A stretch of DNA of 64,000 nt from Candidatus Woesearchaeota archaeon (GCA_018302985.1 JAGVZA010000005.1:10281-74280); one strand, 5' to 3'; shown: positions 2,700 to 62,840, numbered from the stretch's first letter. Program-made: numbers and translations. Notes: generated from the letters alone by a model not told the origin.

Positions 2700-3057
2700 T
2701 CGAAAAAGATTTTATTCTCCTCCTTATTTTTTTATTTTTCGTTAATTTGACGATATTACTTTTATAAAATGGTTCTCTACCAATACCTTTCTTTATAATC
2801 TTCACAACTGCATCCATAGTTTTTGGTTTTAATTCAACCAAATTAAAATAATGACTATCCCATTTAATCACATTTTTAATTACTCTTTCTTTAATTCTTC
2901 CTTTTAACACTCTATGGTATATAACAAAGCTGTCATATCCTAAATCGTCTTCATACTTTCCTTTTTCATAAGTAACACTTCTAGCAGAAATTATTTTCCT
3001 TCTTACACTTTGATTTTGTATTTTTTTATAGCCAAATAACCATTTAAAAAGGCTCAT
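2692..3057 (-). CDS. hypothetical basic protein, 121 aa (cassette gene 3)
   Basis: Intact ORF starting 3 nt after the stop of the 35-aa peptide ORF. Lys/Arg-rich. Confidence 0.45.
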   Translation of the reverse strand: MSLFKWLFGYKKIQNQSVRRKIISARSVTYEKGKYEDDLGYDSFVIYHRVLKGRIKERVIKNVIKWDSHYFNLVELKPKTMDAVVKIIKKGIGREPFYKSNIVKLTKNKKIRRRIKSFSSD

Positions 3058-3060
3058 CGT

Positions 3061-3168
3061 TCACCTAAGCTGTCCAAGAGCAGTCGTGCATGCTTGTATT
3101 GCAAAAATGATAACTATGATACCAACGATGACTATAACTGCAGTCCATGTTATTTCTTTAAGACTCAT
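3061..3168 (-). CDS. 35-aa single-pass membrane peptide (cassette gene 2, not in ORF track)
   Basis: Manual translation gives MSLKEITWTAVIVIVGIIVIIFAIQACTTALGQLR. Its ATG overlaps the upstream stop as ATGA (3165..3168). Confidence 0.3.
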   Translation of the reverse strand: MSLKEITWTAVIVIVGIIVIIFAIQACTTALGQLR

Positions 3169-3599
3169 TTGTCCATCCCCTCTATACTTAAACCAGATAT
3201 ACCAAACTTATTAAAGATGATTTTTGCGTTTTTTATTGCTTCTTCTTCAGTGGCTGCATAGTGGTAAGATCCTACGACTCTTTTATCTAATTGAAGCCAA
3301 AAATTGGGGGAGTTTGGTTCTCCATAAACTAAATGTGTATCTAAGTTATAAGGTGCATTTTGGGGTAAATCTTTAGAATCATATCTGATAAGTACAATGC
3401 CAACAACATTTGTCGCAGATCCAATAGTAAGGATTGCAATTTTTTGGTTATATTTTTCATCCAGTGTTATGAAATCGGGGACTTTGCTAAGAAAGGAGAA
3501 AATACTTCCTGATGGATGATTTGCGAGCAACATTTCTACAGTATTTGGTGGTAACTCTTCTATTTTGAAGAAGGGTTCTTTCATGGTAAACGGTGGCAT
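3165..3599 (-). CDS. hypothetical protein, 144 aa (cassette gene 1)
   Basis: Intact ORF. TATTTATAA box at 3620..3628 lies about 25 nt upstream of the ATG, suggesting a leaderless transcript. Confidence 0.5.
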   Translation of the reverse strand: MPPFTMKEPFFKIEELPPNTVEMLLANHPSGSIFSFLSKVPDFITLDEKYNQKIAILTIGSATNVVGIVLIRYDSKDLPQNAPYNLDTHLVYGEPNSPNFWLQLDKRVVGSYHYAATEEEAIKNAKIIFNKFGISGLSIEGMDK

Positions 3600-3738
3600 C
3601 TAAAAACAGGAGTAGCTATTATTTATAAAGAATACTAAGCAATCTGAGAAGTGTAAAAACAGGTATTTTTAGATAAATCATTGTATCTAGCTTGAAGAGA
3701 ATAAAAAACTATTTAAGTGTGAATGATTTAACAAAATC

Positions 3739-4086
3739 ATGCCTAGAGATTTTTCGGGAAAAATGATGAAGACGGATTTATTTGGTAGAAAAATTCCTAA
3801 GAAAGAGATTAAGAGAGAAGTTCTTGCTGAAAATAGGAGAAATGGTAAATATGCTGAAGAGAATTATAGAATGAGAGCTTCTATACAAGGATATGAAGTA
3901 GAAAGAACTGGAAAGGGTCATGATTATAGAGTTAGAAAAAGAGATCCATTCACAGGAAAAGTAACGTATAGTGGATTAAGAGAAATTAAATCAGGGAAAG
4001 CAAAACTATCAAGATTACAAGAGAAAACAAAAAAGAAAAAATCAAATTACAAAGTCGTAAGGGAAAATCCTTATTCTATTTGGTAA
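3739..4086 (+). CDS. small PD-(D/E)XK-fold nuclease-like protein (Hjc/restriction-endonuclease-like), 115 aa
   Basis: Order of acidic and Lys residues: AEENY ... GKGHDY ... REIKSGKAKLSRLQ, consistent with E..D..ExK. Divergent from the cassette promoter region. Confidence 0.4.
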   Translation: MPRDFSGKMMKTDLFGRKIPKKEIKREVLAENRRNGKYAEENYRMRASIQGYEVERTGKGHDYRVRKRDPFTGKVTYSGLREIKSGKAKLSRLQEKTKKKKSNYKVVRENPYSIW

Positions 4087-12247: not shown

Positions 12248-13480
12248 TTAGAAATCTGTTAATGCTTTTTGTTTTTTGAGTGCTTTGTCTGCTTGATCTA
12301 AAAGAATAGTCCCATATACACCGTCGTAGCCAGGCTGCAATTTAAGGTCTTTTGCTCGATTTTTGAGAATAACTTGGACTACAGCAGGATCAACCACTTG
12401 CGCTAGAGCTGGTTGAGGTGCTTCCAATAAGACATTATATTCAGTGCCAAATTTCCCAATCAATTGTTGATAAAGTGCTGTCAACTTTTTCGAAGTCATC
12501 AATTTAATATTATAGACTGATCCAAGAAGTTCATGCAAAGGAATCAACGAATGAAAAAAAGGAGCATTAGGTTTGACATAACCAACAGGTCGATCTGCTA
12601 ATTGTTCGACTCGATACTCAACACCGATAGTCATTTCTTGTTTGCATTTAGGACATTGTTTGTTTAATTTTCTAGATTCAGCAGGAGCCATCATCACGCC
12701 ACAAGCTCTATGACCATCAAAATGATATTTTCCATATTCCGGAGGAGTTTCAATCGTTCCTTTAATTCCTATGCCAGTGCGTATGGCTTGTAAAATATTT
12801 TTATAAGTTAATTCCTTAAGATCAAAAATAGTCGCTTCTCTCCCAAGTCTCCAAGGATGGGAAGAGTGAGGATCAGAAAAACTTACAATATTGTATTTAT
12901 CTAAACTAGAAATTCTCCAATTCATTGCTCCACTTTCAATTGCATGAATATATTTTGCGCGTTCTTGAAAACATTCTTCGACAGAATCAAAACCAGATTT
13001 GCTCCCAAGTATGCCAAAAAACGATGTCCACGCATGCCCAGGTATCACTTCTATATCTGTGCTAATGCTACGTAACATATCAAGAAATTCAATACTATTC
13101 ATGCCAAAAATAGGTCTGCCATCATAATCAATCCTGCCTTTTTTTAACAATGCATCAATAAATTGTTTGACAACTTCACCATTAGGGAATAAAACTACAT
13201 GATGTATTCTTCTTCCTCTTCCACCTTGGGAATACATTAGACTAATTTCTGTCTGCCAGATAAAAGGAAATTTAGTTTTAGACCAAAGAATACCATTTTC
13301 ATCTTCTGTTAATTTTGAAGTTATTTCCTTATGCCATAAAGGGTGTTGTGCGTCACCAGTACCAAGAATATGTAAACCTTTAATGCATGCATTCCGTTCG
13401 AGATCTTCTAAAGTAGTCTTTTTACTGCAAGCCTGAGCATATCGTCCATGAATATGGAAGTCACCTATTATTTTCATCAA
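12248..13480 (-). CDS. endonuclease Q (EndoQ, PHP-domain deaminated-base endonuclease)
   Basis: DFHIHGRYAQACS, GLHILGTGDAQHPLW, RRIHHVVLFP, SDPHSSHPWRLGREAT, GKYHFDGHRAC, CPKCKQE Zn finger and C-terminal GYDGVYG. Collinear with Pyrococcus EndoQ as I recall it. Confidence 0.88.
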   Translation of the reverse strand: MMKIIGDFHIHGRYAQACSKKTTLEDLERNACIKGLHILGTGDAQHPLWHKEITSKLTEDENGILWSKTKFPFIWQTEISLMYSQGGRGRRIHHVVLFPNGEVVKQFIDALLKKGRIDYDGRPIFGMNSIEFLDMLRSISTDIEVIPGHAWTSFFGILGSKSGFDSVEECFQERAKYIHAIESGAMNWRISSLDKYNIVSFSDPHSSHPWRLGREATIFDLKELTYKNILQAIRTGIGIKGTIETPPEYGKYHFDGHRACGVMMAPAESRKLNKQCPKCKQEMTIGVEYRVEQLADRPVGYVKPNAPFFHSLIPLHELLGSVYNIKLMTSKKLTALYQQLIGKFGTEYNVLLEAPQPALAQVVDPAVVQVILKNRAKDLKLQPGYDGVYGTILLDQADKALKKQKALTDF

Positions 13481-14651
13481 TAGTCACCACATACTGACCG
13501 TAGTCATGATAATCACCAGAGGTATAAGGTTTTATACACTTTATTAAATTACGCTTTCTATACTTAATAATTGTATTACGGCATGAACCTACATCTCGAC
13601 CAGTAATCTTTGCTAAGTCTATACTAGTAAAATATCCTTTCGATTGTTGTATTTTTTGCATAAAATTAAAATAAGTTTTGTCTATGTCTTTTCTACGAAA
13701 CACAGTAAGAATATAAGAATTAAGTATCTGCAGAAGATTATTGGATTTTATTTGAGAACGTAAGGAAAGATTAGCATAGAGTTGTTTGAGTTGTAATTGA
13801 CCTCCGAGCTGTAATCTCCAGTTTCTTCTAGGTTCACCACGTTTTGAAGGGTAAACATTTCTTGGATAAATAGAGCTTAGGAGATTTAATGAAATTAAAA
13901 GATGTTGAATGTCTTTAAGAAGATGGGATTCAGGATATTTTTCCAAACAAGCAGAAGAAATTGAAATATGATATGATGCAGTATTTACTGTACCTTCATC
14001 ATCAATAAATTGAGATAAAAGAGCGTATTTTTGTTCTTGTTGTAATGAAAATATAAAAAGAGGAATATGCGGATTAGTTTCAACTTTCTTACCTGGTTTA
14101 ATGCCTAAAAGAAGAAATATAGAAGAAAGAAATCTAGGAAACGTTACTATTGTTAATAGAGTATTTTTACGTGGACGTTTTTCAGAAAAATAAGGAATAT
14201 TACCTAGTACAGAAGATATATCTAACATAAAACCATTAAAAATATTACTATCAGAATTCATATAATAAGGATTTAGTTTAATGCTAATTCCACCATCTCC
14301 CAAAATTCCAGCTATAACTCTAACTCCGGCACAGGTAGTAAAATCCAAGGGAAATTTAGGATTATAGATACCTCCACCATCTCTGCCTCTAATAAATACT
14401 ATTTTATCTTGATAATCTAATTGAAAATGCTCACAAACTGTCTTCAAGACATCTAATCGAATCAATGAATTTTTACTTAACCAATGACACAATATTCTTT
14501 TACTAATCTGAAGAGTTCTAGCTAATTTATGAATACCGAAAGATCTAATTTGAGAGTCCAATAATTGGAAAAGATTATCTTGAAGTTCAATATATAATTT
14601 ATTCAAAGGCAAATCCTCTAAATATATAATGCCATTGTCTAAAGGAGTCAT
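13461..14651 (-). CDS. free-standing double-motif LAGLIDADG endonuclease-like protein with N- and C-terminal HTH regions
   Basis: Motifs VIAGILGDGGIS and LLSQFIDDEGTV. HTH-like LARTLQISKRILCHW and LAKITGRDVGSCRNTI. 20-nt overlap with endoQ. Confidence 0.7.
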   Translation of the reverse strand: MTPLDNGIIYLEDLPLNKLYIELQDNLFQLLDSQIRSFGIHKLARTLQISKRILCHWLSKNSLIRLDVLKTVCEHFQLDYQDKIVFIRGRDGGGIYNPKFPLDFTTCAGVRVIAGILGDGGISIKLNPYYMNSDSNIFNGFMLDISSVLGNIPYFSEKRPRKNTLLTIVTFPRFLSSIFLLLGIKPGKKVETNPHIPLFIFSLQQEQKYALLSQFIDDEGTVNTASYHISISSACLEKYPESHLLKDIQHLLISLNLLSSIYPRNVYPSKRGEPRRNWRLQLGGQLQLKQLYANLSLRSQIKSNNLLQILNSYILTVFRRKDIDKTYFNFMQKIQQSKGYFTSIDLAKITGRDVGSCRNTIIKYRKRNLIKCIKPYTSGDYHDYGQYVVTIDENNR

Positions 14652-14671: not shown

Positions 14672-14708
14672 TATTTATAAATAATCGGAGGCTCTTTGAG
14701 AAGTAAAC
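14672..14708. promoter_or_regulatory. conserved promoter-associated element, copy A (TATTTATAA-N12-TCTTTGAGAAGTAAAC) upstream of the LAGLIDADG-endoQ operon
   Basis: 31 of 37 positions identical to 32600..32636, including a 16/16 block at identical spacing. The TATA part is about 25 nt from the ATG at 14651. Confidence 0.55.
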
Positions 14709-15583: not shown

Positions 15584-16528
15584 TTATGCTACTGCATTAT
15601 CTACAGTTAATTGTGTTACTACAGCAGTTCTATACATATAATCTAGCTGTACTAAGACTAAATTCTGGAAAGTAACATCTTGTAAGCTAGTAGTATCAAT
15701 AGTGCAAGTAATATCCTTCTCTTTATTGACTAATCTAATAACACCGCTGTTCTGGTTGTTGAGTTGAGAACATTCAACTGTGAAAGCTCGTTCTGGAGAA
15801 GTTAAAGTGACTTTAACCATGTCTTTCAAATTGTCTTGACCGGCACAAACATTCGTGAAAGCATTAGGCTCATACACTACACCTGTGCCCATGTTCTTGA
15901 CTTTGAAGCTTAGCTTGACTCTGCTAGCGCCAACAGAAGTCTGTCGTAAATCAGTAGCTTGTAAAGGTCCAGCAGAATTGTGAAGAGCGACACTAGGTGC
16001 ATTAACATCACAAACATCATTCACACTCTTACGAGCAACAACGTTTTTCTTTAAGCAAAGATTAGCAACTGCTTTAGTTTGATAAGTGTAACAAATATCT
16101 GCGCGTATTTGAGTAGTAAAGGAAGCTGGAATATCAATAGTATATTTTGCTTCACCAAATTCTAAGGATTCTTCTGAACCTGGTTGAACTAAATCTAATT
16201 CCTTGGAGGCACCCATAATTTCGCGTGCATTAACAACATTCAAAGAACGTAAATTAAATGAGGCTTGAGGTATACCGCTTAAAGAAGCAATCAAACTATT
16301 TTTAGGAACAGTAAATTCTCCGCTGTTTTTTAAGAGAAGAGTAATGAAGAAAGTTTCTTGACCATTGTCTAAGACATGAGTAGGAGGTTCATTTTCAAAA
16401 AAAGCTACATCAACTGCCTGTGTCCCTCCTATAAAAGGAGAATCATTTTTAGATTGTTGAGATCCGCCGCCCTGACATCCTGCAAGCACTAGTGCTACAA
16501 GAGCAAGGAAAATAAAGCCTCTTTTCAT
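15584..16528 (-). CDS. secreted lipobox-like protein, 314 aa (envelope paralog)
   Basis: MKRGFIFLALVALVLAGC signal. Shares the FxxNxPP segment and a C-terminal CT-x-D domain with 16593..17639 and 17626..19191. Confidence 0.55.
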   Translation of the reverse strand: MKRGFIFLALVALVLAGCQGGGSQQSKNDSPFIGGTQAVDVAFFENEPPTHVLDNGQETFFITLLLKNSGEFTVPKNSLIASLSGIPQASFNLRSLNVVNAREIMGASKELDLVQPGSEESLEFGEAKYTIDIPASFTTQIRADICYTYQTKAVANLCLKKNVVARKSVNDVCDVNAPSVALHNSAGPLQATDLRQTSVGASRVKLSFKVKNMGTGVVYEPNAFTNVCAGQDNLKDMVKVTLTSPERAFTVECSQLNNQNSGVIRLVNKEKDITCTIDTTSLQDVTFQNLVLVQLDYMYRTAVVTQLTVDNAVA

Positions 16529-16592
16529 TGAAAGAAACTGTGTTTCTTCTATTATTTAAACCTAACGTAAACAAAAAGCAAGAGAAAAAGAA

Positions 16593-17639
16593 CTAAGTAA
16601 AGGAATAAGGTTGCTGAGTAGAAGAGCGAAGAGGAATAGAAGGTGTAGAAAGTTCTTGCTCATAAGGATAATGCAAGGTAATTTTATATTGATAATCTTG
16701 TCTTTCTTCAAATAAAGAGTCATAGCCTGTGCAATGCACTTTTGCTTTGCCGTTGCGTAAAACTAAAGATAATGCAGATCCTTTGCCAGTTTTAAAACGC
16801 TCTTGGGAGCTAGTGCAGTCAAAAGAAATAGCTCCTCCGCTGGTAGATTCTAGTTCAAAGCTAAATTGCTGTTCATCATCTGTCGGGTGAATGCGACCGA
16901 ATTCATAACTTGATCCAGAAAAAACACCTTGTTGCTGCCATCTGTCTTCAATAGTAATATCTAAGGTAACGCCTACGCCATTGGTAATGCTGGACAAAGT
17001 ACGAACAATGTTGGTAACAGTAACAGGATCATAAGCATAACCAAATCCTAATTGTGATCCACTAAGGCTTAAAGTGGTAGGACAAGAAAAAGGCATGGTA
17101 GCTTCAAGATCGAAAGTGCAGAATTGAAAATAAGAAACAGAAGGATAATCATTAATGAGCATTTTCACAAAAAAAGAAGTGCTTGCCCCTGCATCTACAT
17201 TGCTAAATTGAAAAGTGCCATATTGCAATCCATTATCTCTTCTTCTACTGGCAGATCCAACATAAGAGTACTCAGTGCCTGGTGCTAAAAACTCTGGTCC
17301 TCGAGCAGTTTCCCGAACAAGTGCTCCTTCAAGAGTAAGAGTTTCTTGCTCAAAATTAGTAAACCCCTCATAATGAGTAGAACTTCCAACAGTAAAAGAA
17401 TCCACAGTAATAGATTCTTGATTAAAATTAAAAAATTTAAGAGCAATGCTAAACGGACCATCTAGAGCATTAAAAGGTGGATTATTAGGAAGAAATCCTA
17501 CTTGTACTCCTTTGCCACCAATCAAGCCAGTAAAAGCTGTGCCTTCACCTTGTGGTTCCTTATCAGAGGTAGAAGGAAAACTAATGCATCCAGTCAAAAA
17601 CAGAAGTAAAAAAAGAAACAGGAGATTACGCAAGAGCAT
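16593..17639 (-). CDS. secreted lipobox-like protein, 348 aa (envelope paralog)
   Basis: LLLFLTGC signal and VGFLPNNPPFNAL. 14-nt overlap with the upstream gene. Confidence 0.55.
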   Translation of the reverse strand: MLLRNLLFLFLLLFLTGCISFPSTSDKEPQGEGTAFTGLIGGKGVQVGFLPNNPPFNALDGPFSIALKFFNFNQESITVDSFTVGSSTHYEGFTNFEQETLTLEGALVRETARGPEFLAPGTEYSYVGSASRRRDNGLQYGTFQFSNVDAGASTSFFVKMLINDYPSVSYFQFCTFDLEATMPFSCPTTLSLSGSQLGFGYAYDPVTVTNIVRTLSSITNGVGVTLDITIEDRWQQQGVFSGSSYEFGRIHPTDDEQQFSFELESTSGGAISFDCTSSQERFKTGKGSALSLVLRNGKAKVHCTGYDSLFEERQDYQYKITLHYPYEQELSTPSIPLRSSTQQPYSFT

Positions 17640-19191
17640 TCACTCCAGGCAATTCTTTTTCACGGTAAATATCAACCAATCCAGATTTGCGTATAACAAC
17701 ATCATAGTCTGCTCTGGCAGTAAGTTCATAGGCTCCTAATTGTTCAGGAGGTTGTGTAACTCTATATTCACATTTGAAAGATAAAGGTATAGTAATTTGA
17801 TTTTGAGTTGTTGTATTAAGATTGAAGAGTTGTAATAAATAAGTGTTCACAGTTTTCAAGCTATCATCGCGTAAAGTCATTGCTTGTTCACCAGTAAAGT
17901 CGCATGTTGATCGTTCTTGAAGCGTATCAAAAGTTATGCCTAAAGATTCTGGATAAATAAGTTGTAAACTGTTCAGTCTTGCAATAGTGCCAAAGCGAAG
18001 TTCATTTTTGACAAATCCTACGCGAAGATTAGGATAATTGGATTCCGTAAGGGGCATTTTGCCAGTCCCCATGGTCAATAAATAAGGTCCACCACATCCT
18101 CTTCTACATTGGGGAATACTAGTCTCATCAGAGGTGCTAAAAGTAAGATCGTTTTTCACGCTGGGAATTTGCAGAAGATCATCAGGTGCTTCTGCTTCCT
18201 GCACAGTCCATAACTTAAGTCCTGCTACTTGTAACATTCTCGTTCGTGCCTCTAAGACAATACGTTTTTTCATGTATAGTCTATTGCCAACTTCTGTGCC
18301 TTCTCCTCGATCTAAGATGCCTTGCCAATTGAAAGCTGTTTGAAGAGTATGGAAAGTTAGTCCTTTAGGAAATCTGCAGCTGACAAAATGAGTGCTAGTT
18401 GCTTTTTTTGGTACATTCAGGCTTTGAAGTTTATCATTAATATAGACTTCTCCTTCTTGTACTCGCTTGCCGTCTCTATCTTCTTCATAGCAAGAAAATA
18501 AGACTATTTGATCATCATATAGCTGGGTATCTGTATTATAGAAGCCATCAATTTGTACTTTTGCATCTAGTCGTACTGGTTTCCCTTCTTGAAATGCATC
18601 TGACGCTTCAAAGCTTAAAAATTGGATGCCTTTTTGTGGTTCAGTCTCTGCAATATTAGGATTATCCCATGTAGGATAAAGAAGTTCTTTAAAACTAGAC
18701 AAAGGATTTTTGATATCGAAATTTTCTCGTGCACTCTCAAACTTCGTTTGTAACATAAGACGAATATCTTCTGTCGTTGCTGTATAAAGAAGAGAGAATA
18801 CAAGTGCAGTAACAATAAAATGTCCAAGTTTCCAGGAAAGAATAAAATAAACTGCAAGTGATCCAAAAATAAAAATAACCCAGTCAAAAGACAATAATTT
18901 AAAAACTATGGTAGAAAAAAAATAAAGAATCATCAATAATAAAGTAAATCCGCGTGGATTTCTAACAAGAGGTTTAGGTTCGGTGCTAGATCCTCCACCA
19001 CCCCCATTTTGAACAACAACTTTGGTCGTTTTTGATTTAGAACTTTTTCCTTTACCATAAATAAATCTCTCTCTTAAAATGGCAGGCAATACTGAAAGAA
19101 GTCCTGTTTGTTTCTTGGATTCTTTAACTTCTTCTCTTAATTCCTCAGTCACTTCTCTATTGTGAGGTGCTAGAATATCTTGGATTCCCAT
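17626..19191 (-). CDS. membrane-anchored extracellular protein, 521 aa (envelope paralog)
   Basis: Charged N-terminus, GGGGG linker, 3 TM helices, then a large Cys-containing ectodomain. Confidence 0.55.
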   Translation of the reverse strand: MGIQDILAPHNREVTEELREEVKESKKQTGLLSVLPAILRERFIYGKGKSSKSKTTKVVVQNGGGGGSSTEPKPLVRNPRGFTLLLMILYFFSTIVFKLLSFDWVIFIFGSLAVYFILSWKLGHFIVTALVFSLLYTATTEDIRLMLQTKFESARENFDIKNPLSSFKELLYPTWDNPNIAETEPQKGIQFLSFEASDAFQEGKPVRLDAKVQIDGFYNTDTQLYDDQIVLFSCYEEDRDGKRVQEGEVYINDKLQSLNVPKKATSTHFVSCRFPKGLTFHTLQTAFNWQGILDRGEGTEVGNRLYMKKRIVLEARTRMLQVAGLKLWTVQEAEAPDDLLQIPSVKNDLTFSTSDETSIPQCRRGCGGPYLLTMGTGKMPLTESNYPNLRVGFVKNELRFGTIARLNSLQLIYPESLGITFDTLQERSTCDFTGEQAMTLRDDSLKTVNTYLLQLFNLNTTTQNQITIPLSFKCEYRVTQPPEQLGAYELTARADYDVVIRKSGLVDIYREKELPGVNALA

Positions 19192-19215
19192 TAGTACACT
19201 CCATACAAAGAAAAG

Positions 19216-20403
19216 TTACGCAAGGAAGACATCCAAGGAAGCAACATCGAAAGCAGTCTCCGCAATAATACGTAAATTATTCTGTCCAGGAACAACATAA
19301 GAGCTAATATCAAAACTAAAATGATCTCCATAAGTATCAAGATAAAGAGGATAACCGTTCACTAAAACAGTTGCAACTTTTCTGCGATTATCAGCACCTA
19401 ATTGCAGTTCCATGAACACTGAGCCACTACCAGTAGGTACACTAAAAGAATAACCAGGAGCTTTGCCAGCATCTATATCGCCTTCAAGCAGCATGCGTTC
19501 TAAAATATACTTGCCACCATCAATGCTGAGTTCCAAAACATTTCTTCCTTCATGAAGATCGTTTCTATTGAAATCATGGCTTACTTCACCAGCATCACAC
19601 ACAATTTGTTGTTGGCTGATAACTTTGCTGTTAAGTCTAATCCAAAGAGTTCCTTTTTCGTTAGCAGTTTGGCAGTTAATAATATAAAATAAACTTAAAT
19701 GTCCGAAGCGTTGGAGATCATCTGCACTTAAAACAAAAGTTCTTTGTTCAGTAGTATGCGCTAGGGTATAAGTTTTAAACAGGGTCACGTCTCGTAAGAC
19801 ATAGCTGCTTCTGCTAAAGCCTCCAGAAACTGAAAAGGTAATATGATTAACACTACGTATAGAAGAAGCAGGAAGTTGTAAAGGCAATTGTGAACTAGTA
19901 AGAGGACCACTAAAAATTTCTCTGTCATTCAAGGAAATAGTAATGCTGCCTTCAGCTTTCTCTAGAAAAAATAAGAGGCGAACATTGTCAAGAGGAGCAT
20001 CTTGTGAAACTTTAAAAATGAGTTCTTTTTCAGTGCCTGAGAAAAATCCTCCGCTAACATCAAGAGATTTTGCAAGGAGTTCTTCATCTTTATCTTGATC
20101 TGTATATAAAGAAACTGAAGCTAAGGGTTTTGCATAAATTTTTTGACCAAAGGGTTGAAGCTCGCCTATGCTTTGACTAAAAAGTATTTCTTGCTGTGTT
20201 GGACCATAACTGCCGCCATAATTTGGCTTTCCAGAGGAAGGATAATAACCAGAACTTGGCTGACCCACTAATTCTTCTTTTTGTCCTTCAGGAAGAAGAA
20301 CGATATATATCAATAAAAATAAACCAATAAATAAAATCAGATAATAAGCATTAAGAGATTCAGGTAAATCTACTCCTCCTTTTCTGCTAAAGCCCCTTTT
20401 CAC
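19216..20403 (-). CDS. N-terminally anchored extracellular protein, 395 aa
   Basis: MKRGFSRKGG..YYLILFIGLFLLIYIVLL anchor, Gly/Tyr/Ser/Pro linker, then a beta-rich domain. TATA box about 25 nt upstream. Confidence 0.55.
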   Translation of the reverse strand: MKRGFSRKGGVDLPESLNAYYLILFIGLFLLIYIVLLPEGQKEELVGQPSSGYYPSSGKPNYGGSYGPTQQEILFSQSIGELQPFGQKIYAKPLASVSLYTDQDKDEELLAKSLDVSGGFFSGTEKELIFKVSQDAPLDNVRLLFFLEKAEGSITISLNDREIFSGPLTSSQLPLQLPASSIRSVNHITFSVSGGFSRSSYVLRDVTLFKTYTLAHTTEQRTFVLSADDLQRFGHLSLFYIINCQTANEKGTLWIRLNSKVISQQQIVCDAGEVSHDFNRNDLHEGRNVLELSIDGGKYILERMLLEGDIDAGKAPGYSFSVPTGSGSVFMELQLGADNRRKVATVLVNGYPLYLDTYGDHFSFDISSYVVPGQNNLRIIAETAFDVASLDVFLA

Positions 20404-25328: not shown

Positions 25329-25434
25329 AAAGTGATGCCCAAATATACATTTATAAACCTTACCTTAGTTAGAGCATACCCTATAGTTAAGGATGAATAG
25401 TTAAAAATATAAATAGATATATGAATAAAAAAAG

Positions 25435-26556
25435 ATGAGAATTCTTTTAAGTAAAAAAAGTAGAGAATTATTATTTAATAAGTTAAAAGAAGAATATAAT
25501 GTCAAAAATTTAAAAGAACTAAGTAAAAATATAAAAGTTCCATTTAAAACGTTACAAAAATGGAGATATGGAGAATTATATTTGCCTGATAAATTGATAG
25601 GAACTAAAGAGAGTTCTCTAGAAATTATTGATAAAAAAGAAGATAATTGGGGAGCTAAAAAAGGTGGAATAATAGGGGGTAAAAAGAGTTCTCTAAATCT
25701 AATAAAAAAGCTTGGAAAAGAAAAATATAGTCAAGTAATGAAAAATAGAGGGAAGAAGATAAAAAACACTATTTGGAAGAGATATAAAAAAGAAGAAGTG
25801 CTTAGTTTAATTAAATTAGGTAAACTAAGAAAAAGAGAGGAGATGTGTAAGAGTTTAGAATTAAGTCATGAAAGCTTCTTCACAAATAATAAAATTGCAT
25901 TAGATACAAGCAAAGTTAATTGGAGTAGAGTAGATAAAAAGAAAGAACTGATATTACCAGAAAAGATGTCTAAAGAGTTAGCTGAAGAAATAGGCATTCA
26001 TTTAGGGGACGGTTGCTTATCATTAGGAAAAAATTATTTTTCAGCAAAAGGTACAAACCTAGAAGTTGAGTATTATCAAAACTATATTAAAAGTTTATAT
26101 AAAAAATTATATAATTTAAATCTTAATGTTAAACAGTTCGATAGTGTAAGTGGATTTGAGATATATTCTAAGGGTTTATTTGAGTTCAAAAACAAAGTGC
26201 TAGGAATACCATATGGAGAAAAAGTTGAAAGAATTGAGATTCCTAAAGAGATATTAGATTCAAAAAATAAAGAGATTTATAGAGCATGCATTAGAGGAAT
26301 TTTTGATACTGATGGTTGTATTTATTTATCAAAAGAAGATACTTATCCCGTACTTTCGATTACTATAAAATCAAAAAAGTTAATTGACCAATTAGAAGAT
26401 ATGTTAAAAAAGTTGGGGTTTTTACCAACAAAATATAAGTGGAGTTTATATTTAAATGGGGTAATATTGCTCAAAAAATGGGTAAATGAGATAAATTCTA
26501 ACAATCCTATAAAGAAAGAACAATTAGAAGAGGCAATAAAGGTAGTAGATTTATAA
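25435..26556 (+). CDS. free-standing double-motif LAGLIDADG endonuclease-like protein with an N-terminal HTH region
   Basis: Motifs LAEEIGIHLGDGCLS and CIRGIFDTDGCIYL. Very AT-rich. Its 3' end overlaps the tRNA promoter. Confidence 0.7.
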   Translation: MRILLSKKSRELLFNKLKEEYNVKNLKELSKNIKVPFKTLQKWRYGELYLPDKLIGTKESSLEIIDKKEDNWGAKKGGIIGGKKSSLNLIKKLGKEKYSQVMKNRGKKIKNTIWKRYKKEEVLSLIKLGKLRKREEMCKSLELSHESFFTNNKIALDTSKVNWSRVDKKKELILPEKMSKELAEEIGIHLGDGCLSLGKNYFSAKGTNLEVEYYQNYIKSLYKKLYNLNLNVKQFDSVSGFEIYSKGLFEFKNKVLGIPYGEKVERIEIPKEILDSKNKEIYRACIRGIFDTDGCIYLSKEDTYPVLSITIKSKKLIDQLEDMLKKLGFLPTKYKWSLYLNGVILLKKWVNEINSNNPIKKEQLEEAIKVVDL

Positions 26557-26580
26557 ACCCTTTTTTAGTTATTTAATAGC

Positions 26581-26675
26581 GCCCTCGTAGTTTAGCTTGG
26601 ATAGCTGAGAAAGCAGCCCAAAAAGAATACGAGCTTGCGGAGCTTGTGACACAGGTTCAAATCCTGTCGAGGGCG
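26581..26675 (+). tRNA. tRNA, probably tRNA-Arg(GCG), 95 nt with a ~23-nt insertion (candidate non-canonical intron, 26607..26629)
   Basis: Acceptor GCCCTCG/CGAGGGC plus G73. D-arm GTTT-AGCTTGGA-TAGC. Anticodon hairpin CGAGC-TTGCGGA-GCTTG (26630..26646). T-arm ACAGG-TTCAAAT-CCTGT. TATA box about 30 nt upstream and a T-run downstream. Confidence 0.8.
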
Positions 26676-44195: not shown

Positions 44196-47100
44196 GATGA
44201 TGGAAACTTCCTGCGTTTAACTTCTTGGCGCAACCAAGCTTCCCAATCTGCAAAAATGCGTTTATTGTCATAAACATGATGTTGTTCATTGATTTTGTCT
44301 GCGCTTTGATGAAAATAATCATTGCTTTGCACAACAAAAGGTGCTTCAAGAAGTTCTGGAAGTGCATAAGCCTGTGCTGCCTTAAGTAAAGTTTCTTTCA
44401 CTTGTGCGCGCACTAAGACTCCATCCCAGACCGCATCCCAATTGCCTGCCCATTCACGAACATTTGCAGCAATGCTTTTCAAGACTTCGCTATTGCCTTG
44501 TAATAAATCATCTGTAGGTAAAAGTGCATCTTGTTTGCTGTCATATCTGAACAAATCTACAAAGCCGCCTTGCTTTTGTGGATCATCATCCCAATGTTTG
44601 CGTACTTCTGTAATTTGTAAAACTCTTCTCTTGCTGTGTAAGCCATCTGCGCTGCGAACTGGATTGCTAACGATAATAAGATCAACTGCTTTGAAGCTAG
44701 TTTTGGGTACTCCCAAATCATTAACTATTCTATCATAAACAGCATAAGGATGTGCACCATGAATAGTTCCTGCAACAACATTTGCTAAAGCGCCAATTCT
44801 CATCGCTTCAAACAAAGCTTTAGCTTCAAGACTTCTGATTTCTCCAACAATTAAGGAACTATCACCCATACGAAGAGAAGTTCTAATGCCTTCATCAGCA
44901 GCAAGTTCATTGCCTCCGCTCATTAATGCGGCTCGTACTTTCATCGGTTGAATATTATAACCCATATTGCGTAAAGCGTCAATCGGAAGTTCAAGCGTAT
45001 TATGAAGTAAAATATTATTACAAACAAAGTTTTCATAATCTGGAACAGATAAGTCATAGACATATAATTCTGTAGAGGATAGTGGTTCAATCTCTGCAAC
45101 TTCATCCCAAAAAATGTCGGCATGAACTAATTTTTGCAAATTTTGAGTAATGTTAGTTGTTATCTGAACTTGAGTCATTAAAGTTAGGAATTTTCTTCTA
45201 CCGACATTATTATTTCTAGAGATATAATCTTGAGTATTAAAAATTTTATTATCTTTAGTAAGATTAGAAATTTCTTTTTTCAGCTGGAGAGATAGAGGGA
45301 TAATATCAGTAGTGTCATGTGTTGAACGTTTTAAGCAAAGTTTATCTAAACAATTGAGTTTGTAAGATTGTAAAACACCAATATTTTTCTTAAATTCTAT
45401 AAAATCTCTTAATGTGCTAATCCCAGCATTAAAAGTACCGTCTTTCCTTTTTTTTCCTATTCGAAGGGTAATGTCATAACCCAAGAGCAAAGTTTGAAGA
45501 TCTCTTAATAATTGATAAGAGGCTAGAGGAATAACTATTTCATTATCAGAAACACAGCCGTCTCCACTGAAAACTCCCTGAAGAACAAAAGCTATTTGTT
45601 GTTTGGAAAGACTATAAATCCATGAAGGAACTTTCTTAGTATAAGCATCTCCGCGAAGTTCAAGGATGTCTCGAAAAATAAATCTAAGAGTTGTTGAATT
45701 AATCATTAAAGATCCACCATCAGAATGAATCTTAGGGGTCAATTTGAATTGTTTTGCGGCTAAACAAACTATATTACTATCTTCTTCGTCAAAGCTAGAC
45801 ACGATTATAGATCTTTCATCATAACAGCCATCTGCTAGCCATAAGCCAACAAGCATTAAAAATTCAGAATCAAGTCTAATGTCTGTTGGTATTGGTTGGG
45901 AATTTCCAGAGTATTTATAGGATAATTTTTCTTTAAAGGGAGTAAAGTCTATATTTAAGTTCTTAAGGATAACAATAGGCAATTGTCCTAATCTAAGCCA
46001 ACGAGGAGGTATCGAACGTGTATAACCTTGTTCTTTTGCTAATTGTTTAATCTCAGAGTAGTATTTTTTTATAAATTTTTTCAAAGATTCTCCTTGTAAA
46101 ATACCTCTAGGAATTCTATCTAAATAATCTAATAAGTTAATAGTATTCTGAGCATAGTCGTTGAAAGGTATTTTTCGTATGGTAGCTATATGAGATCCTA
46201 TAGATAAATTAACGGGTTTTATTTCTTGAAGTGTGCCTTCGTCACCTAAAGTAAAAAGAGAATGATCTGCAGTAGTTTTAATAATTCGTCCAGTTCGTGT
46301 TTTAATCTGATAAATTTGCTTTTGCACTTTGTGACGAATAAGTTTTGATGGATGTGACCAAGTAAGTTTATTGTCTTTATTGAGAGAAAGAACTTGAATG
46401 GATTCACGATTCCCTAAGACTTCATGGCCTGAAAGATTATACCATGATCCATATTTTTGAATTGAAGAATCTATAAGTTTACCTATAGTGGTTTTTTGTA
46501 TGCAATTTGCTTTTTTGATAAGAATTTCTGAATCACCTGTAACACTGTCTTCAATGGAAATAATTCTATGGGTGCGCATAATTTCTACAAGTGATGCTCC
46601 CAACAAACTAGTCTTACCGCTTCCTCTTGTACCTGCAAATAATAAAGTTCTTCCGCCATCAATAGCAAAACTCAAAACTGCGGCAGCTAAAGGTGTCAGC
46701 ATTTTCTGTTGAATAAATAAAGGCAATGTCCAAGGTTTATCTCTATGTCTACGGAATGCAAAAGACAATCCGACAGGGCTTAAGGGAGTTGTAATAACAG
46801 ATACTCTGCTTCTTGCTCCGGGTATAGACAAGTCCGTATCTAGAACAGGATTTGCTTCATCTAAAGGTCTTCCGCTTAACAAACGCAATTTAGTTGCCCA
46901 ACTATCACTGTCTTCTCTGCTTGGAATAATATTAGTAACACATTCTCCATAATCTTGATGCACTAAGAAGATAGGAGTTTGACCTATAGGTCCATTCACC
47001 ATGATGTCTTGTACCTTTTCGTCTTGTAATAAAATTTCTAAAATGCCAAAACCAACAGTATAGCGCACTAAAATATCTGCTAATAGTGCAATTTGTTTGT

Positions 47101-59485: not shown

Positions 59486-59998
59486 ATGACTAAAAAAGAC
59501 CAAAAGCAACCAGAAAAGCTCGAACCTCAGCCTGTTAAAGATATAGAAGACAAGTCCAAAATCATAGCTGACTACGAAAACACACTCAAACGTCTGCAAG
59601 CAGACTTTGAAAACTACGTCAAAAGAGTAGACAAAGAAAAACAAGATGCCACAAAATATGCAGTAGCAAAAATCCTCACAAAAATAGTCAATCTCGTTGA
59701 TGATCTCGATCGTTCCATGCAAGTCTTGGAAAAAACACAAGACAAGGAAATTAAAACAGGAATCCAAATGATCCATAAACAATTTCATAAAATATTGCAG
59801 GAAGAAGGCATCAAACCTTTCGACAGTAAAGGAAAGAAACTCGATCCTTACCAACATGAAGTCATAGAAATGGTAGCGCATGACTCTCCAGAAGGAACAG
59901 TCATTGAAGAATTACAAAAAGGCTATCATTTACACGATAAAATACTCAGAACTGCAAAAGTTAGAGTATCCAAAGGAAAATCACAGGAGAAGAAATGA
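59486..59998 (+). CDS. grpE: nucleotide exchange factor GrpE
   Basis: LQADFENYVKRVDKEK...VNLVDDLDRS...FDPYQHEV. Confidence 0.85.
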   Translation: MTKKDQKQPEKLEPQPVKDIEDKSKIIADYENTLKRLQADFENYVKRVDKEKQDATKYAVAKILTKIVNLVDDLDRSMQVLEKTQDKEIKTGIQMIHKQFHKILQEEGIKPFDSKGKKLDPYQHEVIEMVAHDSPEGTVIEELQKGYHLHDKILRTAKVRVSKGKSQEKK

Positions 59999-60064
59999 AC
60001 AAAGATCCAAGAAGACCACAACGAGAACAAAATACTATAATCACAAACTTAACTAACCAATAAC

Positions 60065-61000
60065 ATGAAAACAATATCTATTCAACAAACACTGGAAGAA
60101 ATTAAAGATATGAAGAGAAATGGAAATAATTTTCAAACTATTAAGCATCAAATAGGAGAAAAGAGGTTGAAAAGTTTCCTGAAGACAATCTACCCAAATT
60201 TTTCTTTACCTGAAATAGAAAAAATAACAGGAGTTCCAGACTCTAGTTTAGGCTATTGGTTTGAAAAGTTAAAAATTCCACGTAGTAGATGGCATATGAA
60301 AACAATAGCATATGCAGGGGATAATGAAAAAGAACAAATAGTTACTGTAGAAAAGAAAGTTTACAAATTAAAAACTATAAAAATTAGTCCAGAACTAGCA
60401 TATCTTATTGGATTTAATATAGGTGATGGTAATACTGAGCCATATAGTGTAGCTGTCTTTAATCAAGATAGAGGAATGAAGGCTTATTTATCCAGGATTA
60501 TGAAGAAGTATGGGAACATTACTCATAATAAACGAGAAGATGGATTATGGAGATTAAGATTATCAAAAGGAATAATTGCTAATTTAATAAAAGATCATGA
60601 AGGATTAAGATATGATACATTAGATTATATTTTTAATAATGATAAACTAGCAAGAACATTTATTGCGGGATTTTGGGATGCTGAAGGTACAGTAAGAAAA
60701 CAGAATAAGTACAATTATTATAATATTTATGTATACAATAGTAAAGAACATCTTTTAAAGAGAATTGAAGAGTTTTTTACTAAGAAAGGAATAAAATGTT
60801 CTAAATTAAGTAAAGAGCCTCCAAAAGGAATAAGATACATAAAAGGAAAAAGAATCTATTCTAAAAAAATAGTGTATAGATTATCAATTCCAAAAGATTC
60901 TGCTAAAAATTGGATTAAAGAAATAGGTGTTAATATGTTACATTCAAAAAAGAGTGAGACAGTAAAACAAATGACTCAAACTAACTATGGAGGAAATTAA
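60065..61000 (+). CDS. free-standing double-motif LAGLIDADG endonuclease-like protein with an N-terminal HTH region, inserted between grpE and dnaK
   Basis: Motifs [14 protein letters not shown] and [12 protein letters not shown]. Own TATA box about 25 nt upstream. Its stop lies 1 nt before the dnaK ATG. Confidence 0.7.
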
Positions 61001-61001
61001 A

Positions 61002-62840
61002 ATGGCAACAAAAGAAAAAATCATAGGCGTCGATCTCGGGACACAAAACTCAGCAGCAGCAGTATTGCAAGCAGGTCGTCCAACTTTAATTTCAAGCGCA
61101 GAAGGAGCATCCTTATACGGTAAAGCTTTCCCAAGTTTCGTAGCATTCACTAAAGACGGTCAAGTTTTAGTCGGTGAGCCAGCACGTCGTCAAGCAGTCT
61201 CTAACCCAGAAGGAACTGTCTACGGTGCTAAAAGAAAAATGGGAACACACCATAAATATAAAATCTATGGAAAAGAATACACACCTCAACAAATCTCTGC
61301 ATTCATTCTCCAGAAGATCAAGAAAGACACAGAAGAATTCTTAGGAGAAAAAATTAACAAGGCAGTTATCACAGTTCCAGCTTATTTCGACGACAATCAA
61401 CGTCAAGCAACTAAAGATGCTGGTCAGATTGCTGGCTTAGAAGTAGTTCGTATTATCAATGAACCAACAGCAGCAGCATTAGCCTATGGTCTAGACAAGC
61501 AAGACAAAGAAGCAAAAATCTTAGTCTTTGATTTAGGTGCAGGTACTTTAGATGTAACTATTATGGAATTAGGAGACGGAATCTTCCAAGTCAAATCTAC
61601 ATCAGGAGACACGCAATTAGGTGGTCACGACATGGATAACGCGATCATGGATTATATTACTAAAGAATTCGATAAAGATCACGACTTTGATTTAAATGAT
61701 GACAAAACTGCAGTCCAAAGAGTTCGTGAAGCTGCGGAAAAAGCAAAAATAGAATTGTCAACAGTCACTGAAACAGAAATCAATCTGCCATTCATTCATG
61801 GACAGCAAAATCTCAAGTTAACATTATCACGAGCGAAGCTGGAAGAGTTAATTGATCCTATTGTCCAGCGCTGTAAAAAACCTTTGCTCCAAGCAATCAA
61901 GGACAGTAAGTTAGAAACTAATAAAATTGACAAAATTATCTTAGTAGGCGGACCAACTCGTATGCCTGTCATTAAGAAGTTCGTTGAAGATCTCTTGGGC
62001 AAAAAAGCAGAACGCGGTGTTGATCCTATGGAATGTGTAGCTCATGGTGCAGCTATTCAAGGAGGAGTCTTAGGTGGAGAAGTCAAAGACATTCTCTTAT
62101 TAGATGTCACACCCTTAACTTTAGGTATTGAAACTCTAGGCGGAATTAGAACTCCATTAATCCAGAGAAACACAACCATTCCAACAAAGAAATCACAAAC
62201 GTTCTCTACTGCAGACGATAATCAAGGAGCAGTAACTATTCATGTCTTGCAAGGAGAAAGAGAAATGGCTGCAGACAATAAAAGTATGGGTCGTTTTGAT
62301 TTAGTAGGTATTCCTCCAGCTCCAAGAGGAGTCCCACAGATTGAAGTCTCTTTCGATATTGACGCCAATGGAATCATTCATGTCACAGCAAAAGATCTAG
62401 GCACTGGTAAAGAGCAGAATATTAAAATTACTGCGTCCAACAAGCTCTCAGAAGCTGAAGTGGAAAAAATGAAAAAATCAGCAGAAGAATTTGCCGAGGA
62501 AGACAAGAAGAAAAAGGAAAAAGCAGAAGTCAGAAACGAAGCTGATGCCTTAGTCTACACTTTAGAAAAAAGTCTCAAAGAGTTCAAAGGAAAAATAGAA
62601 GAAAAAGAAATCAAAGCAATAGAGAAAGATAAAGAAGAACTCAAGAAACTGCTCAAGGAAGACAACACAGACGCTCTCAAGCAGCACATGGAAGAACTGA
62701 ACAAGAGACTTCATGAAGCCTCAACAAAGCTCTATCAAAAAGCCCAAGAAGCAGAGCAGCAAGCCAAAGATCACGAAATAGGCAAAGACCAAAAGAAAAA
62801 GGACAAAGTAGTTGATGCTGAAGTCGTAGACAAAAAGTAG
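61002..62840 (+). CDS. dnaK: molecular chaperone DnaK (Hsp70)
   Basis: [32 protein letters not shown] and the full substrate-binding domain. Start placed at MATKEK, preceded by GGAGGA. Confidence 0.97.

Follow-up and report, generated by a model that had tools for sequence, protein, structure and literature searches.

Free-standing LAGLIDADG genes beside endoQ, tRNA-Arg(GCG) and dnaK in a woesearchaeal chromosome as candidate homing endonucleases

Three LAGLIDADG proteins and their relationship

A 64,000-nt stretch of the chromosome of a Candidatus Woesearchaeota archaeon (GCA_018302985.1, JAGVZA010000005.1:10281-74280), hereafter the window, carries three free-standing LAGLIDADG genes, here called G1, G2 and G3, each beside a conserved gene. 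G1 (13461..14651, minus strand) encodes a protein of 396 aa with an N-terminal helix-turn-helix (HTH), a two-domain LAGLIDADG core and a C-terminal winged helix; its motifs are encoded at 14289-14312 and 13989-14012 (aa 114-121 and 214-221). G2 (25435..26556, plus strand; 373 aa) combines a conserved N-terminal region of about 170 aa with a two-domain core (motifs at 25993-26016 and 26296-26319; aa 187-194 and 288-295), and G3 (60065..61000, plus strand; 311 aa) an N-terminal HTH region with an I-DmoI-like core (motifs at 60410-60433 and 60668-60691; aa 116-123 and 202-209). These open reading frames (ORFs) and their motifs, first reported in an earlier note made from the DNA alone, are confirmed in the sequence. 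For comparison we used numbered DNA stretches from related genomes and metagenome-assembled genomes (MAGs), labelled L007-L164.

LAGLIDADG enzymes cleave DNA site-specifically at targets of about 20 bp and leave 4-nt 3' overhangs. The two-domain fold of this class is recovered for G1 and G3 by model and for G2 by family profile. Pfam LAGLIDADG_3 matches G2 (E = 4e-11) and G3 (E = 1.6e-12) significantly, and G3 is also matched by Hom_end (6.7e-5). On G1 the same domain reaches 19.2 bits, under the gathering cutoff of 22.5 bits; we nevertheless assign G1 to the class because its family profile matches PI-PfuI and because its AlphaFold model (30 homologs; predicted local distance difference test, pLDDT, 91.6) matches the TliVMA intein endonuclease domain, PI-SceI, I-Tsp061I and I-DmoI with a Foldseek probability of 1.0. 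The concern that the motifs might fail to reach significance against hidden Markov models thus does not apply to G2 and G3, and for G1 the sub-threshold score is backed by profile and model. The AlphaFold2 model of G3 (pLDDT 93.1) has I-DmoI as its top Foldseek match (E = 4.5e-9, TM 0.70 on the target), and the G2 family profile covers both domains of the TliVMA intein endonuclease (E = 3.4e-12). Sequence identity of the three proteins to solved structures is only 12-20%.

Retention of the catalytic acids, claimed for the three genes in the earlier note, extends to their families. The pair D121/E207 of G3 is invariant in an alignment of 68 sequences, D119/E219 of G1 is invariant in 30, and in 63 sequences of the G2 family D192 is invariant and D293 nearly so, despite an overall identity of only about 40-55% in these three alignments. 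The proposed HTH segments fared less well: signals of extra domains are present, but all HTH assignments stay under the Pfam thresholds, and the C-terminal winged helix of G1 is backed by weak Foldseek matches only. The N-terminal region of the G3 family profile shows a weak match to Lrp/AsnC-type regulators.

The three genes do not form one family, as had been supposed. Pairwise BLASTP among G1, G2 and G3 gives nothing significant (best E-value 0.007), and close paralogy was rejected on this ground; a remote link confined to the core is seen with hhalign (probability 96% for G2-G1, 95% for G2-G3 and 55% for G1-G3). We conclude from these sequence comparisons that they represent three separate, anciently diverged families. 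Full-length homologs number 30 for G1 (31-53% identity), 75 for G3 (40-73%) and at least 288 for G2, and all three families occur in DPANN archaea, namely Woesearchaeota, Nanoarchaeia, Diapherotrites and Aenigmatarchaeota. A scan of the window for further members of the three families found none beyond G1, G2 and G3. G3 (27.6% GC) and G2 (about 30%) are both more AT-rich than the window background of about 35%.

Occupied and empty slots beside dnaK and endoQ

G3 fills the slot between grpE (59486..59998, plus strand; Pfam), which forms its upstream boundary, and dnaK (61002..62840, plus strand; also identified with Pfam), the conserved gene that always adjoins it. The order grpE-G3-dnaK recurs in 10/10 loci (nine homolog loci plus the window), usually with dnaJ next, while the genes outside the operon differ. 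The final codons of G3 overlie the dnaK ribosome-binding site GGAGGAAATTAAAATG, and half of the G3 family ends in a C-terminal ..GG.., as expected if most members adjoin dnaK. The dnaK start is likelier the ATG at 61002 (MATKEKIIG, preceded by GGAGG) than the ORF finder's 60987, so that the G3 and dnaK coding sequences do not overlap.

To sample the slot by its conserved neighbour, the window DnaK was used as a query with one genome per species, giving 28 loci. The closest match to the window DnaK is on a Woesearchaeota MAG contig, where the C-terminus is 99% identical, and the next relative is at 89%. In L013, the nearest relative (DnaK 89% and GrpE 90% identical), the slot is empty and grpE and dnaK are separated by about 80 nt; it is also empty in L015, L016, L017 and L020. 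L014 lacks G3 as well, and is the sister of G3-bearing L018, with DnaK 89% identical. Two pairs of DnaK sisters thus differ in G3 content, a pattern in which gain and loss are inseparable within this sample. In this set, chosen by DnaK and hence unbiased, only 2 of about 11 DPANN dnaK loci carry G3. No G3 remnants were found in grpE-dnaK slots that are empty or otherwise filled.

The 5' end of dnaK itself differs between the two kinds of allele. In a comparison of nine G3-bearing with 17 G3-less loci, for which the consensus was taken from the G3-less alleles and shared ancestry was ignored, the DnaK phosphate-binding motif IIGIDLGT is changed in 8/9 G3-bearing but 2/17 G3-less alleles (Fisher p = 2e-4), and V or C stands at its fourth position in 5/9 compared with 0/17 (p = 0.002). 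Between the window and L013, dnaK is 84% identical overall and 68% across the first 60 nt, with the difference concentrated in ATCATAGGCGTCGATCTCGGGACA (window) versus ATAATTGGAATAGATTTAGGAACC (L013). In the eight IIGIDLGT codons, G3-bearing alleles have a GC content at third codon positions (GC3) of 0.25-0.62, as compared with 0-0.25 throughout the G3-less DPANN-type alleles. When each allele is set against its closest G3-less relative, the divergence of this segment exceeds that of the following 300 nt in 5/9 G3-bearing alleles and falls below it in 8/11 G3-less ones. The window codons for IIGVDLGT (61020..61043, plus strand), atypically GC-rich and diverged from G3-less alleles, are therewith a candidate target or immunity segment: the pattern is suggestive of immunity substitutions or a short co-conversion tract at a site that G3 may cut.

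Several points weigh against this view of the dnaK segment. L018 bears G3 yet is nearly consensus, and the pair L018/L014 shows only a modest excess of divergence; the statistics derive their consensus from G3-less alleles and disregard kinship; and part of what is seen in G3-less alleles may come from the AT richness of codons close to a start codon. A point against homing of G3 as such is that pairwise G3 identities, all about 46-58%, neither clearly track nor clearly contradict the DnaK tree. We note that the low GC3 of these codons in G3-less alleles holds even where the GC3 of the gene is 0.5-0.6, which points to a constraint at the DNA or mRNA level that is independent of the protein. 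A target-site duplication was considered and rejected: a repeat that flanks G3, matching at 19/23 positions, is confined to the window (p about 0.01-0.03) and has no counterpart at eight other G3 loci.

The slot shows further variation. In L021, L022, L023, L024 and L038 (DPANN and Methanosarcinales-labelled MAGs) it is filled by a conserved, unrelated gene pair, encoding a Cys-rich protein of about 170 aa (CxxCxxCC) and one of about 120 aa that resembles DUF3467 by eye. A 22-codon micro-ORF in the window (59995-60063, plus strand) overlaps the grpE stop (ATGA), and a similar one in G3-less L013 (about 1864-1947) reaches the dnaK ribosome-binding site. In G3-bearing L164 (3444-5178) dnaK is read as two ORFs (161 and 422 aa), which could reflect a frameshift, a pseudogene or an assembly error. 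The closest DnaKs outside DPANN (L022-L030) belong to Methanosarcinales-labelled MAGs (67-69%) and Elusimicrobia (64-67%), affinities consistent with lateral transfer of the dnaK operon.

G1 stands in a comparable relation to endoQ (endonuclease Q, 410 aa; 12248..13480, minus strand), the conserved gene that always adjoins it and whose product matches PfuEndoQ with E = 3.6e-44. The final codons of G1 overlap the endoQ start, and in 4/4 loci (three homolog loci plus the window) G1 lies immediately 5' of endoQ and overlaps it. Of the TATA boxes that the earlier note had proposed for each LAGLIDADG gene, TATA-like boxes are found for G1 and G2, that of G1 (TTTATAAAT, 14673..14681, minus strand, read by eye) lying about 27 nt 5' of its ATG, and boxes also precede the G1 homologs of L007-L009, about 26-33 nt before the ATG.

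Empty sites are again found when the neighbour is used to choose the sample. A metagenome scan with an EndoQ alignment gave 80 sampled loci whose EndoQ is 48-67% identical to that of the window; none of the 80 carries G1, and seven are precise empty sites, with 50-60 nt before endoQ and the same flanking genes retained (a homolog of the window gene at 15584-16528, endoQ and a PAC2 gene). In a neighbour-joining tree of EndoQ the window clusters with seven G1-less loci, and G1-bearing L008 pairs with G1-less L104, both with 100% bootstrap; the four G1-bearing loci are dispersed among G1-less ones, gain and loss being inseparable in this sample too. The homolog search returned 30 G1 homologs, compared with at least 589 EndoQ relatives in one metagenome collection. 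Neither remnants of G1 in empty or otherwise-filled endoQ slots nor a flanking target-site duplication comparable to the window repeat at G3 were found. The first 70 nt of endoQ also show no signature of a G1 target, which counts against homing.

Other genes around endoQ are noted here for completeness. In L096 the G1 slot, from the 314-aa gene homolog to endoQ, is filled by a 412-aa ORF (2760-3998, plus strand) with the LAGLIDADG-like strings GLYLAEGG and GFLSGDGS; it was rejected as a LAGLIDADG gene, finding no support from Pfam, hhalign or a PDB search. Four consecutive window genes (15584-20403, minus strand; 314, 348, 521 and 395 aa) have no Pfam or PADLOC matches. Homologs of the 314-aa and 395-aa genes lie 5' of endoQ in several DPANN loci, e.g. 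L007-L009 and L091-L095, and one of the 521-aa gene does so in L009.

A constant position on the same strand, with ORFs that overlap or abut the downstream start, suggests co-transcription or translational coupling and would suit domesticated LAGLIDADG/HTH proteins acting as DNA-binding regulators or accessory factors of the downstream gene. G3 could in that case be a heat-shock operon regulator that replaces the absent HrcA, and G1 a regulator of endoQ. Full-length, frameshift-free homologs and the additional HTH and winged-helix domains fit such a role, and WhiA, a bacterial regulator that joins LAGLIDADG to a C-terminal HTH and is universally conserved in its clade, provides a precedent (its N-terminal domain is among the G3 Foldseek matches, at rank 50). 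However, domesticated LAGLIDADG proteins such as WhiA have lost the catalytic acids that all three families keep; the closest relatives are without the genes though their grpE-dnaK and endoQ loci are otherwise intact; and dnaK is altered specifically beside G3. The earlier note had left the choice between homing and domestication, adding that genes fixed at these positions in all relatives, with no empty sites, would speak for the latter. G1 and G3 are not fixed in this way, and two G2-less tRNA-Arg(GCG) genes argue likewise for G2. Because empty sites occur at the exact slots in close relatives and the catalytic acids are invariant, homing is favoured and domestication appears unlikely.

A probable split tRNA-Arg(GCG) gene around G2

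The earlier note had placed each gene in an intergenic slot next to conserved genes. While the neighbours (endoQ, a tRNA, grpE/dnaK) are as stated, the slot of G2 is a disrupted tRNA-Arg gene rather than a plain intergenic one. The upstream neighbour is the EF-1beta gene (Pfam). A 26-nt direct repeat follows (25346-25371, second copy at 26546-26571), whose left copy contains the TATA-like promoter element ATTTATAAACC (25349..25359, plus strand), placed 5' of a degenerate tRNA 5' fragment (25377..25400, plus strand) that comprises the acceptor 5' strand, TA and the D-arm and is taken as the left remnant of the split resident gene. A TATA-like box then precedes the G2 start codon at a distance similar to that of G1 (about 26-33 nt). 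Downstream of G2 lies tRNA-Arg(GCG) (26581..26675, plus strand), with its anticodon loop at 26635-26641 and an insertion of about 21 nt at 26604-26624; the TATA-like box of this tRNA gene (26549-26559, plus strand) spans the G2 stop codon.

This arrangement is reproduced in L010, L011, L012 and L130, which with the window make up the five loci compared. In 5/5 the G2 ORF abuts or overlaps a same-strand tRNA gene, which by its anticodon loop is always tRNA-Arg(GCG), while the flanking genes are unrelated. In 5/5 a tRNA 5' fragment followed by a TATA-like box precedes the G2 ATG, with the D-arm motif of the fragment starting 46-51 nt before it; the pattern for this motif, defined post hoc, has a background of 47 occurrences in 1.87 Mb, or 2.5e-5 per nt. 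L012 and L130 in addition have matching 3' remnants (T-arm and acceptor 3' strand) 11-45 nt past the intact tRNA-Arg. Both pieces in L012 are detected by nhmmer (model positions 1-26 and 39-71), which recovered tRNA remnants at no other locus, the fragments being too short.

The association extends beyond these loci at the protein level. Of 83 C-termini in the G2 family, 65 read as a translated tRNA 5' end at a fixed offset past a conserved SNNP motif. Such tails (ASSITG*, ASSSVD.., ..QPCG..) are translations of the tRNA 5' end GCGAGTAGT... and of the CTTGCGG anticodon loop, as confirmed on DNA in three cases (L010, L011, L012). The G2-linked tRNAs have GGCGAG in common at four loci compared on DNA, and most family tails imply the same, while the acceptor stems of the remnants vary by locus; that of the L130 remnant, GCCCCTA, is identical to the one in the G2-less tRNA-Arg(GCG) of L099. 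Among the three tRNA-Arg(GCG) genes in loci not picked via G2, one (L130) has G2 beside it and two (L099 and L161) do not.

Three of the five linked tRNAs are without an intron, and the window and L010 carry an insertion or intron. The tRNA-Arg(GCG) of L010 (5102-5187) has a canonical 12-nt intron after position 37 and is miscalled by ARAGORN as tRNA-Ala(TGC). The window tRNA is missed by ARAGORN and by Rfam at the gathering score (25.2 versus 29 bits), and ARAGORN recognises it as tRNA-Arg(gcg) when 18 nt or more of the D-arm region are deleted. Its 21-nt insertion in that region is a putative non-canonical intron, for which the predicted fold neither supports nor excludes a splicing motif. 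It falls in the region where resident tRNAs are split, and one may speculate that, as a spliced intron, it also shields the tRNA gene from cutting. In L161 the G2-less tRNA-Arg(GCG) (1670-1820, minus strand, after ndk) has a 77-nt intron, and introns seem common in DPANN tRNA-Arg(GCG).

The simplest reading that the locus suggests is a nuclease-plus-tRNA cassette. The mobile unit would consist of a promoter, the nuclease ORF and its own tRNA-Arg(GCG), and would lie within a resident gene for tRNA-Arg(GCG) that was broken at about position 26. Domestication would leave both the tRNA gene downstream of G2 and the flanking remnants unexplained. Some features of the window itself speak against the cassette. 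The acceptor of its linked tRNA, GCCCTCG, is unlike the family norm, and a 63-nt collinear repeat flanks G2 (25345-25407 versus 26545-26611; remnant plus promoter against tRNA plus promoter) with a score of 22 compared with 9.0 +/- 1.4 for shuffles (0/1000 reach it). By itself this repeat is one of the signs of the cassette. Since the odd acceptor comes together with a repeat shared with the remnant, a local duplication may have occurred in the window, and may fit better here than a cassette-borne tRNA. Well-preserved remnants, moreover, might be functional and not recent scars.

The strict linkage of G2 to tRNA-Arg(GCG), and the insertions or introns in the linked tRNAs of the window and L010, could alternatively mean that G2 is an RNA-binding, maturase-like factor for processing or expressing the adjacent and sometimes intron-bearing tRNA. 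Some LAGLIDADG proteins are maturases, and the bI3 maturase and I-AniI are among the Foldseek/PDB matches. Yet 3/5 linked tRNAs are intronless, tRNA-Arg(GCG) genes without G2 exist and one of them bears the 77-nt intron, the G2 family conserves its catalytic acids, and in archaea the splicing endonuclease takes out tRNA introns, with no need of a maturase. We regard a maturase role as highly improbable.

Three further ideas were rejected. G2 does not reside in a functional tRNA intron or split tRNA, given that the remnant acceptor is unpaired with the downstream tRNA and the 3' remnants are without an anticodon arm. Rfam (E<=1 around G2) shows no group I intron or other structured RNA near the gene. 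L010 and L130 had hinted at a particular tie of LAGLIDADG genes to endoQ, but this is better explained by the frequent location of tRNA-Arg(GCG) near endoQ in DPANN genomes (in L099, 4001-5321, the tRNA directly follows endoQ), which is probably why G2-family genes occur near endoQ.

Probable homing, its precedents and its consequences

Taken together, G1, G2 and G3 probably each stem from an independent lineage of free-standing homing endonuclease genes that are still mobile or were so until recently. We infer cleavage, the identity of the targets and current mobility from comparative patterns; the fold, the conserved catalytic acids, the addresses, the empty sites, the patchy distribution, the changed dnaK segment and the tRNA remnants are observed. 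Each lineage would encode a monomeric two-domain nuclease similar to I-DmoI, extended by HTH or winged-helix modules for DNA binding, and keeps one fixed address, on the same strand and directly 5' of the conserved gene (G1-endoQ, G2-tRNA-Arg(GCG), G3-dnaK). The proposed cycle has three steps: (I) the nuclease would cut a nuclease-free allele within or beside the conserved neighbour, (II) repair by recombination would carry a copy of the nuclease gene, along with a short flank, into the break, and (III) the changed target would let the occupied allele escape cutting. For G3 the candidate target is the dnaK segment for IIGIDLGT, 20-45 bp downstream of the insertion point, and in an L013-type empty allele the cut is predicted near ATAATTGGAATAGATTTAGGAAC. 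The downstream gene is probably transcribed from the promoter of the nuclease gene, because occupied alleles have lost its own spacer.

Patchiness of this kind could also be produced by repeated loss of ancestral genes, and this, together with the lack of degenerate G1 or G3 copies in the empty slots, which a classical homing cycle would lead one to expect, and with the wholly comparative nature of the support (sequences and models), tells against homing. In its fullest form, such an account holds that the three genes are relics: former homing endonuclease genes, now immobile, that were inserted long ago, passed on vertically and are being lost lineage by lineage, their apparent address specificity going back to a single old insertion in each family. 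Members that share an address are just 40-58% identical, which makes each family old, and neither strain-level polymorphism, nor orthologs of more than 73% identity at other sites, nor orthologs on viral contigs were seen. Immobile endonuclease genes should decay, however, and all members examined keep their catalytic residues and full length; many precise and independent deletions would be needed to restore spacers of 50-80 nt; at the G3 and G2 loci the address stays constant amid unrelated outer flanks; and the tRNA remnants at G2 remain well formed and vary from host to host, which suggests recent insertions. We consider the relic account rather unlikely, and retain homing as the better description.

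A viral origin was rejected as well. IMG/VR viral contigs hold no orthologs of G1-G3, only matches of 23-39% identity confined to the LAGLIDADG core, and PHROG matches are lacking. Membership in a defence system, sought with PADLOC for G1, endoQ and the upstream genes, gave nothing meaningful; the sole match was a marginal one to G2 (E 0.0047).

Free-standing homing endonucleases are well studied in phages and organelles, and those of phages are among the closest parallels to the three lineages. Like the seg and mob genes of T4-like phages, known for 'intronless homing' (SegB; MobE between nrdA and nrdB), G1-G3 occupy intergenic slots by conserved genes and are patchy among relatives, and their presumed target is in the conserved neighbour and not at the insertion point. 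In phages, as probably here, such endonuclease genes displace downstream promoters or embed them in the nuclease ORF, with overlapping start and stop codons (PMC2988022). SegB, in the T4 tRNA cluster, recognises tRNA gene sequence and drives the inheritance of adjacent tRNA genes (PMC2330249), and is the nearest functional analogy for the link of G2 to tRNA-Arg. By contrast, the T4-type elements sit in phage genomes that recombine in co-infections, whereas G1-G3 are in a cellular archaeal chromosome, and the candidate G3 target is just 20-45 bp from the insertion point, not hundreds of bp. We know of no phage case in which the element lies inside a split copy of its target tRNA gene.

With I-DmoI, I-Tsp061I, I-PorI, PI-PfuI, PI-SceI and TliVMA the three proteins share the pseudo-dimeric two-domain fold with one acid per motif. 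They differ from these intron- and intein-type enzymes in lying outside rRNA/tRNA introns and inteins and in adding N-terminal, and for G1 also C-terminal, HTH or winged-helix domains. That they are not within an intron or intein, as the earlier note held, agrees with the lack of an intein splicing domain in G1-G3 (Pfam) and of any group I or II intron in the whole window (Rfam at gathering score). The window does contain an intein with a LAGLIDADG_3 domain (44999..46489, minus strand), inside the gene for a 1282-aa T2SSE-type ATPase (44192-48040); both of its motifs (LVGLWLADGC and FSGDGC) are present, in line with the fourth LAGLIDADG domain reported for the pilus ATPase, and it falls outside the G1-G3 families.

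A free-standing LAGLIDADG core fused to extra DNA-binding domains is also found in WhiA and yeast HO. In distinction from WhiA, G1-G3 retain the catalytic acids and are patchily distributed; HO, unlike G1-G3, is intein-derived and acts on a single host locus for mating-type switching. The G2 unit further resembles integrative elements of archaea and bacteria that target tRNA genes and restore them on insertion, in its position within a tRNA gene, the tRNA fragments at its borders and the intact tRNA after insertion. It differs from them in its size of about 1.3 kb, the lack of an integrase, a LAGLIDADG nuclease as its sole ORF, and the presence of the tRNA 5' part upstream together with a complete second tRNA, with no duplicated 3' att segment.

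Archaeal LAGLIDADG enzymes are known from rRNA introns, group I introns and inteins (PMC6125680, PMC2602781). Our literature search found no description of site-specific free-standing LAGLIDADG genes by dnaK, endoQ or tRNA-Arg in archaea, and none of a nuclease-plus-tRNA cassette. By analogy, G1-G3 would probably play in archaea, with LAGLIDADG enzymes, the part that seg and mob genes play in phages. Of all the parts, the G2/tRNA arrangement is the likeliest to be truly new. Tentatively, and as a possibility that falls somewhat short of probable, we propose that G2 and its own tRNA-Arg(GCG) form an undescribed selfish cassette of DPANN archaea, which would destroy the resident tRNA gene at about position 26, supply a cleavage-resistant copy (intron-protected in some lineages) and so render the host dependent on it for an essential tRNA; more broadly, free-standing LAGLIDADG genes would home within the chromosomes of archaeal cells, with the 5' ends of conserved genes as docking sites.

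If these proposals are true, they would have several consequences. Annotators should be warned that these 'hypothetical proteins' or 'regulators' beside housekeeping genes are probably selfish. Three natural nucleases would become available with guessable targets, namely the dnaK 5' end, tRNA-Arg(GCG) and the junction upstream of endoQ. With the G2/tRNA locus, the old notion that tRNA genes are shielded from mobile elements by introns and fragmentation would gain a concrete example. Finally, a drive by gene conversion between DPANN cells would imply frequent DNA exchange and recombination in these episymbionts.

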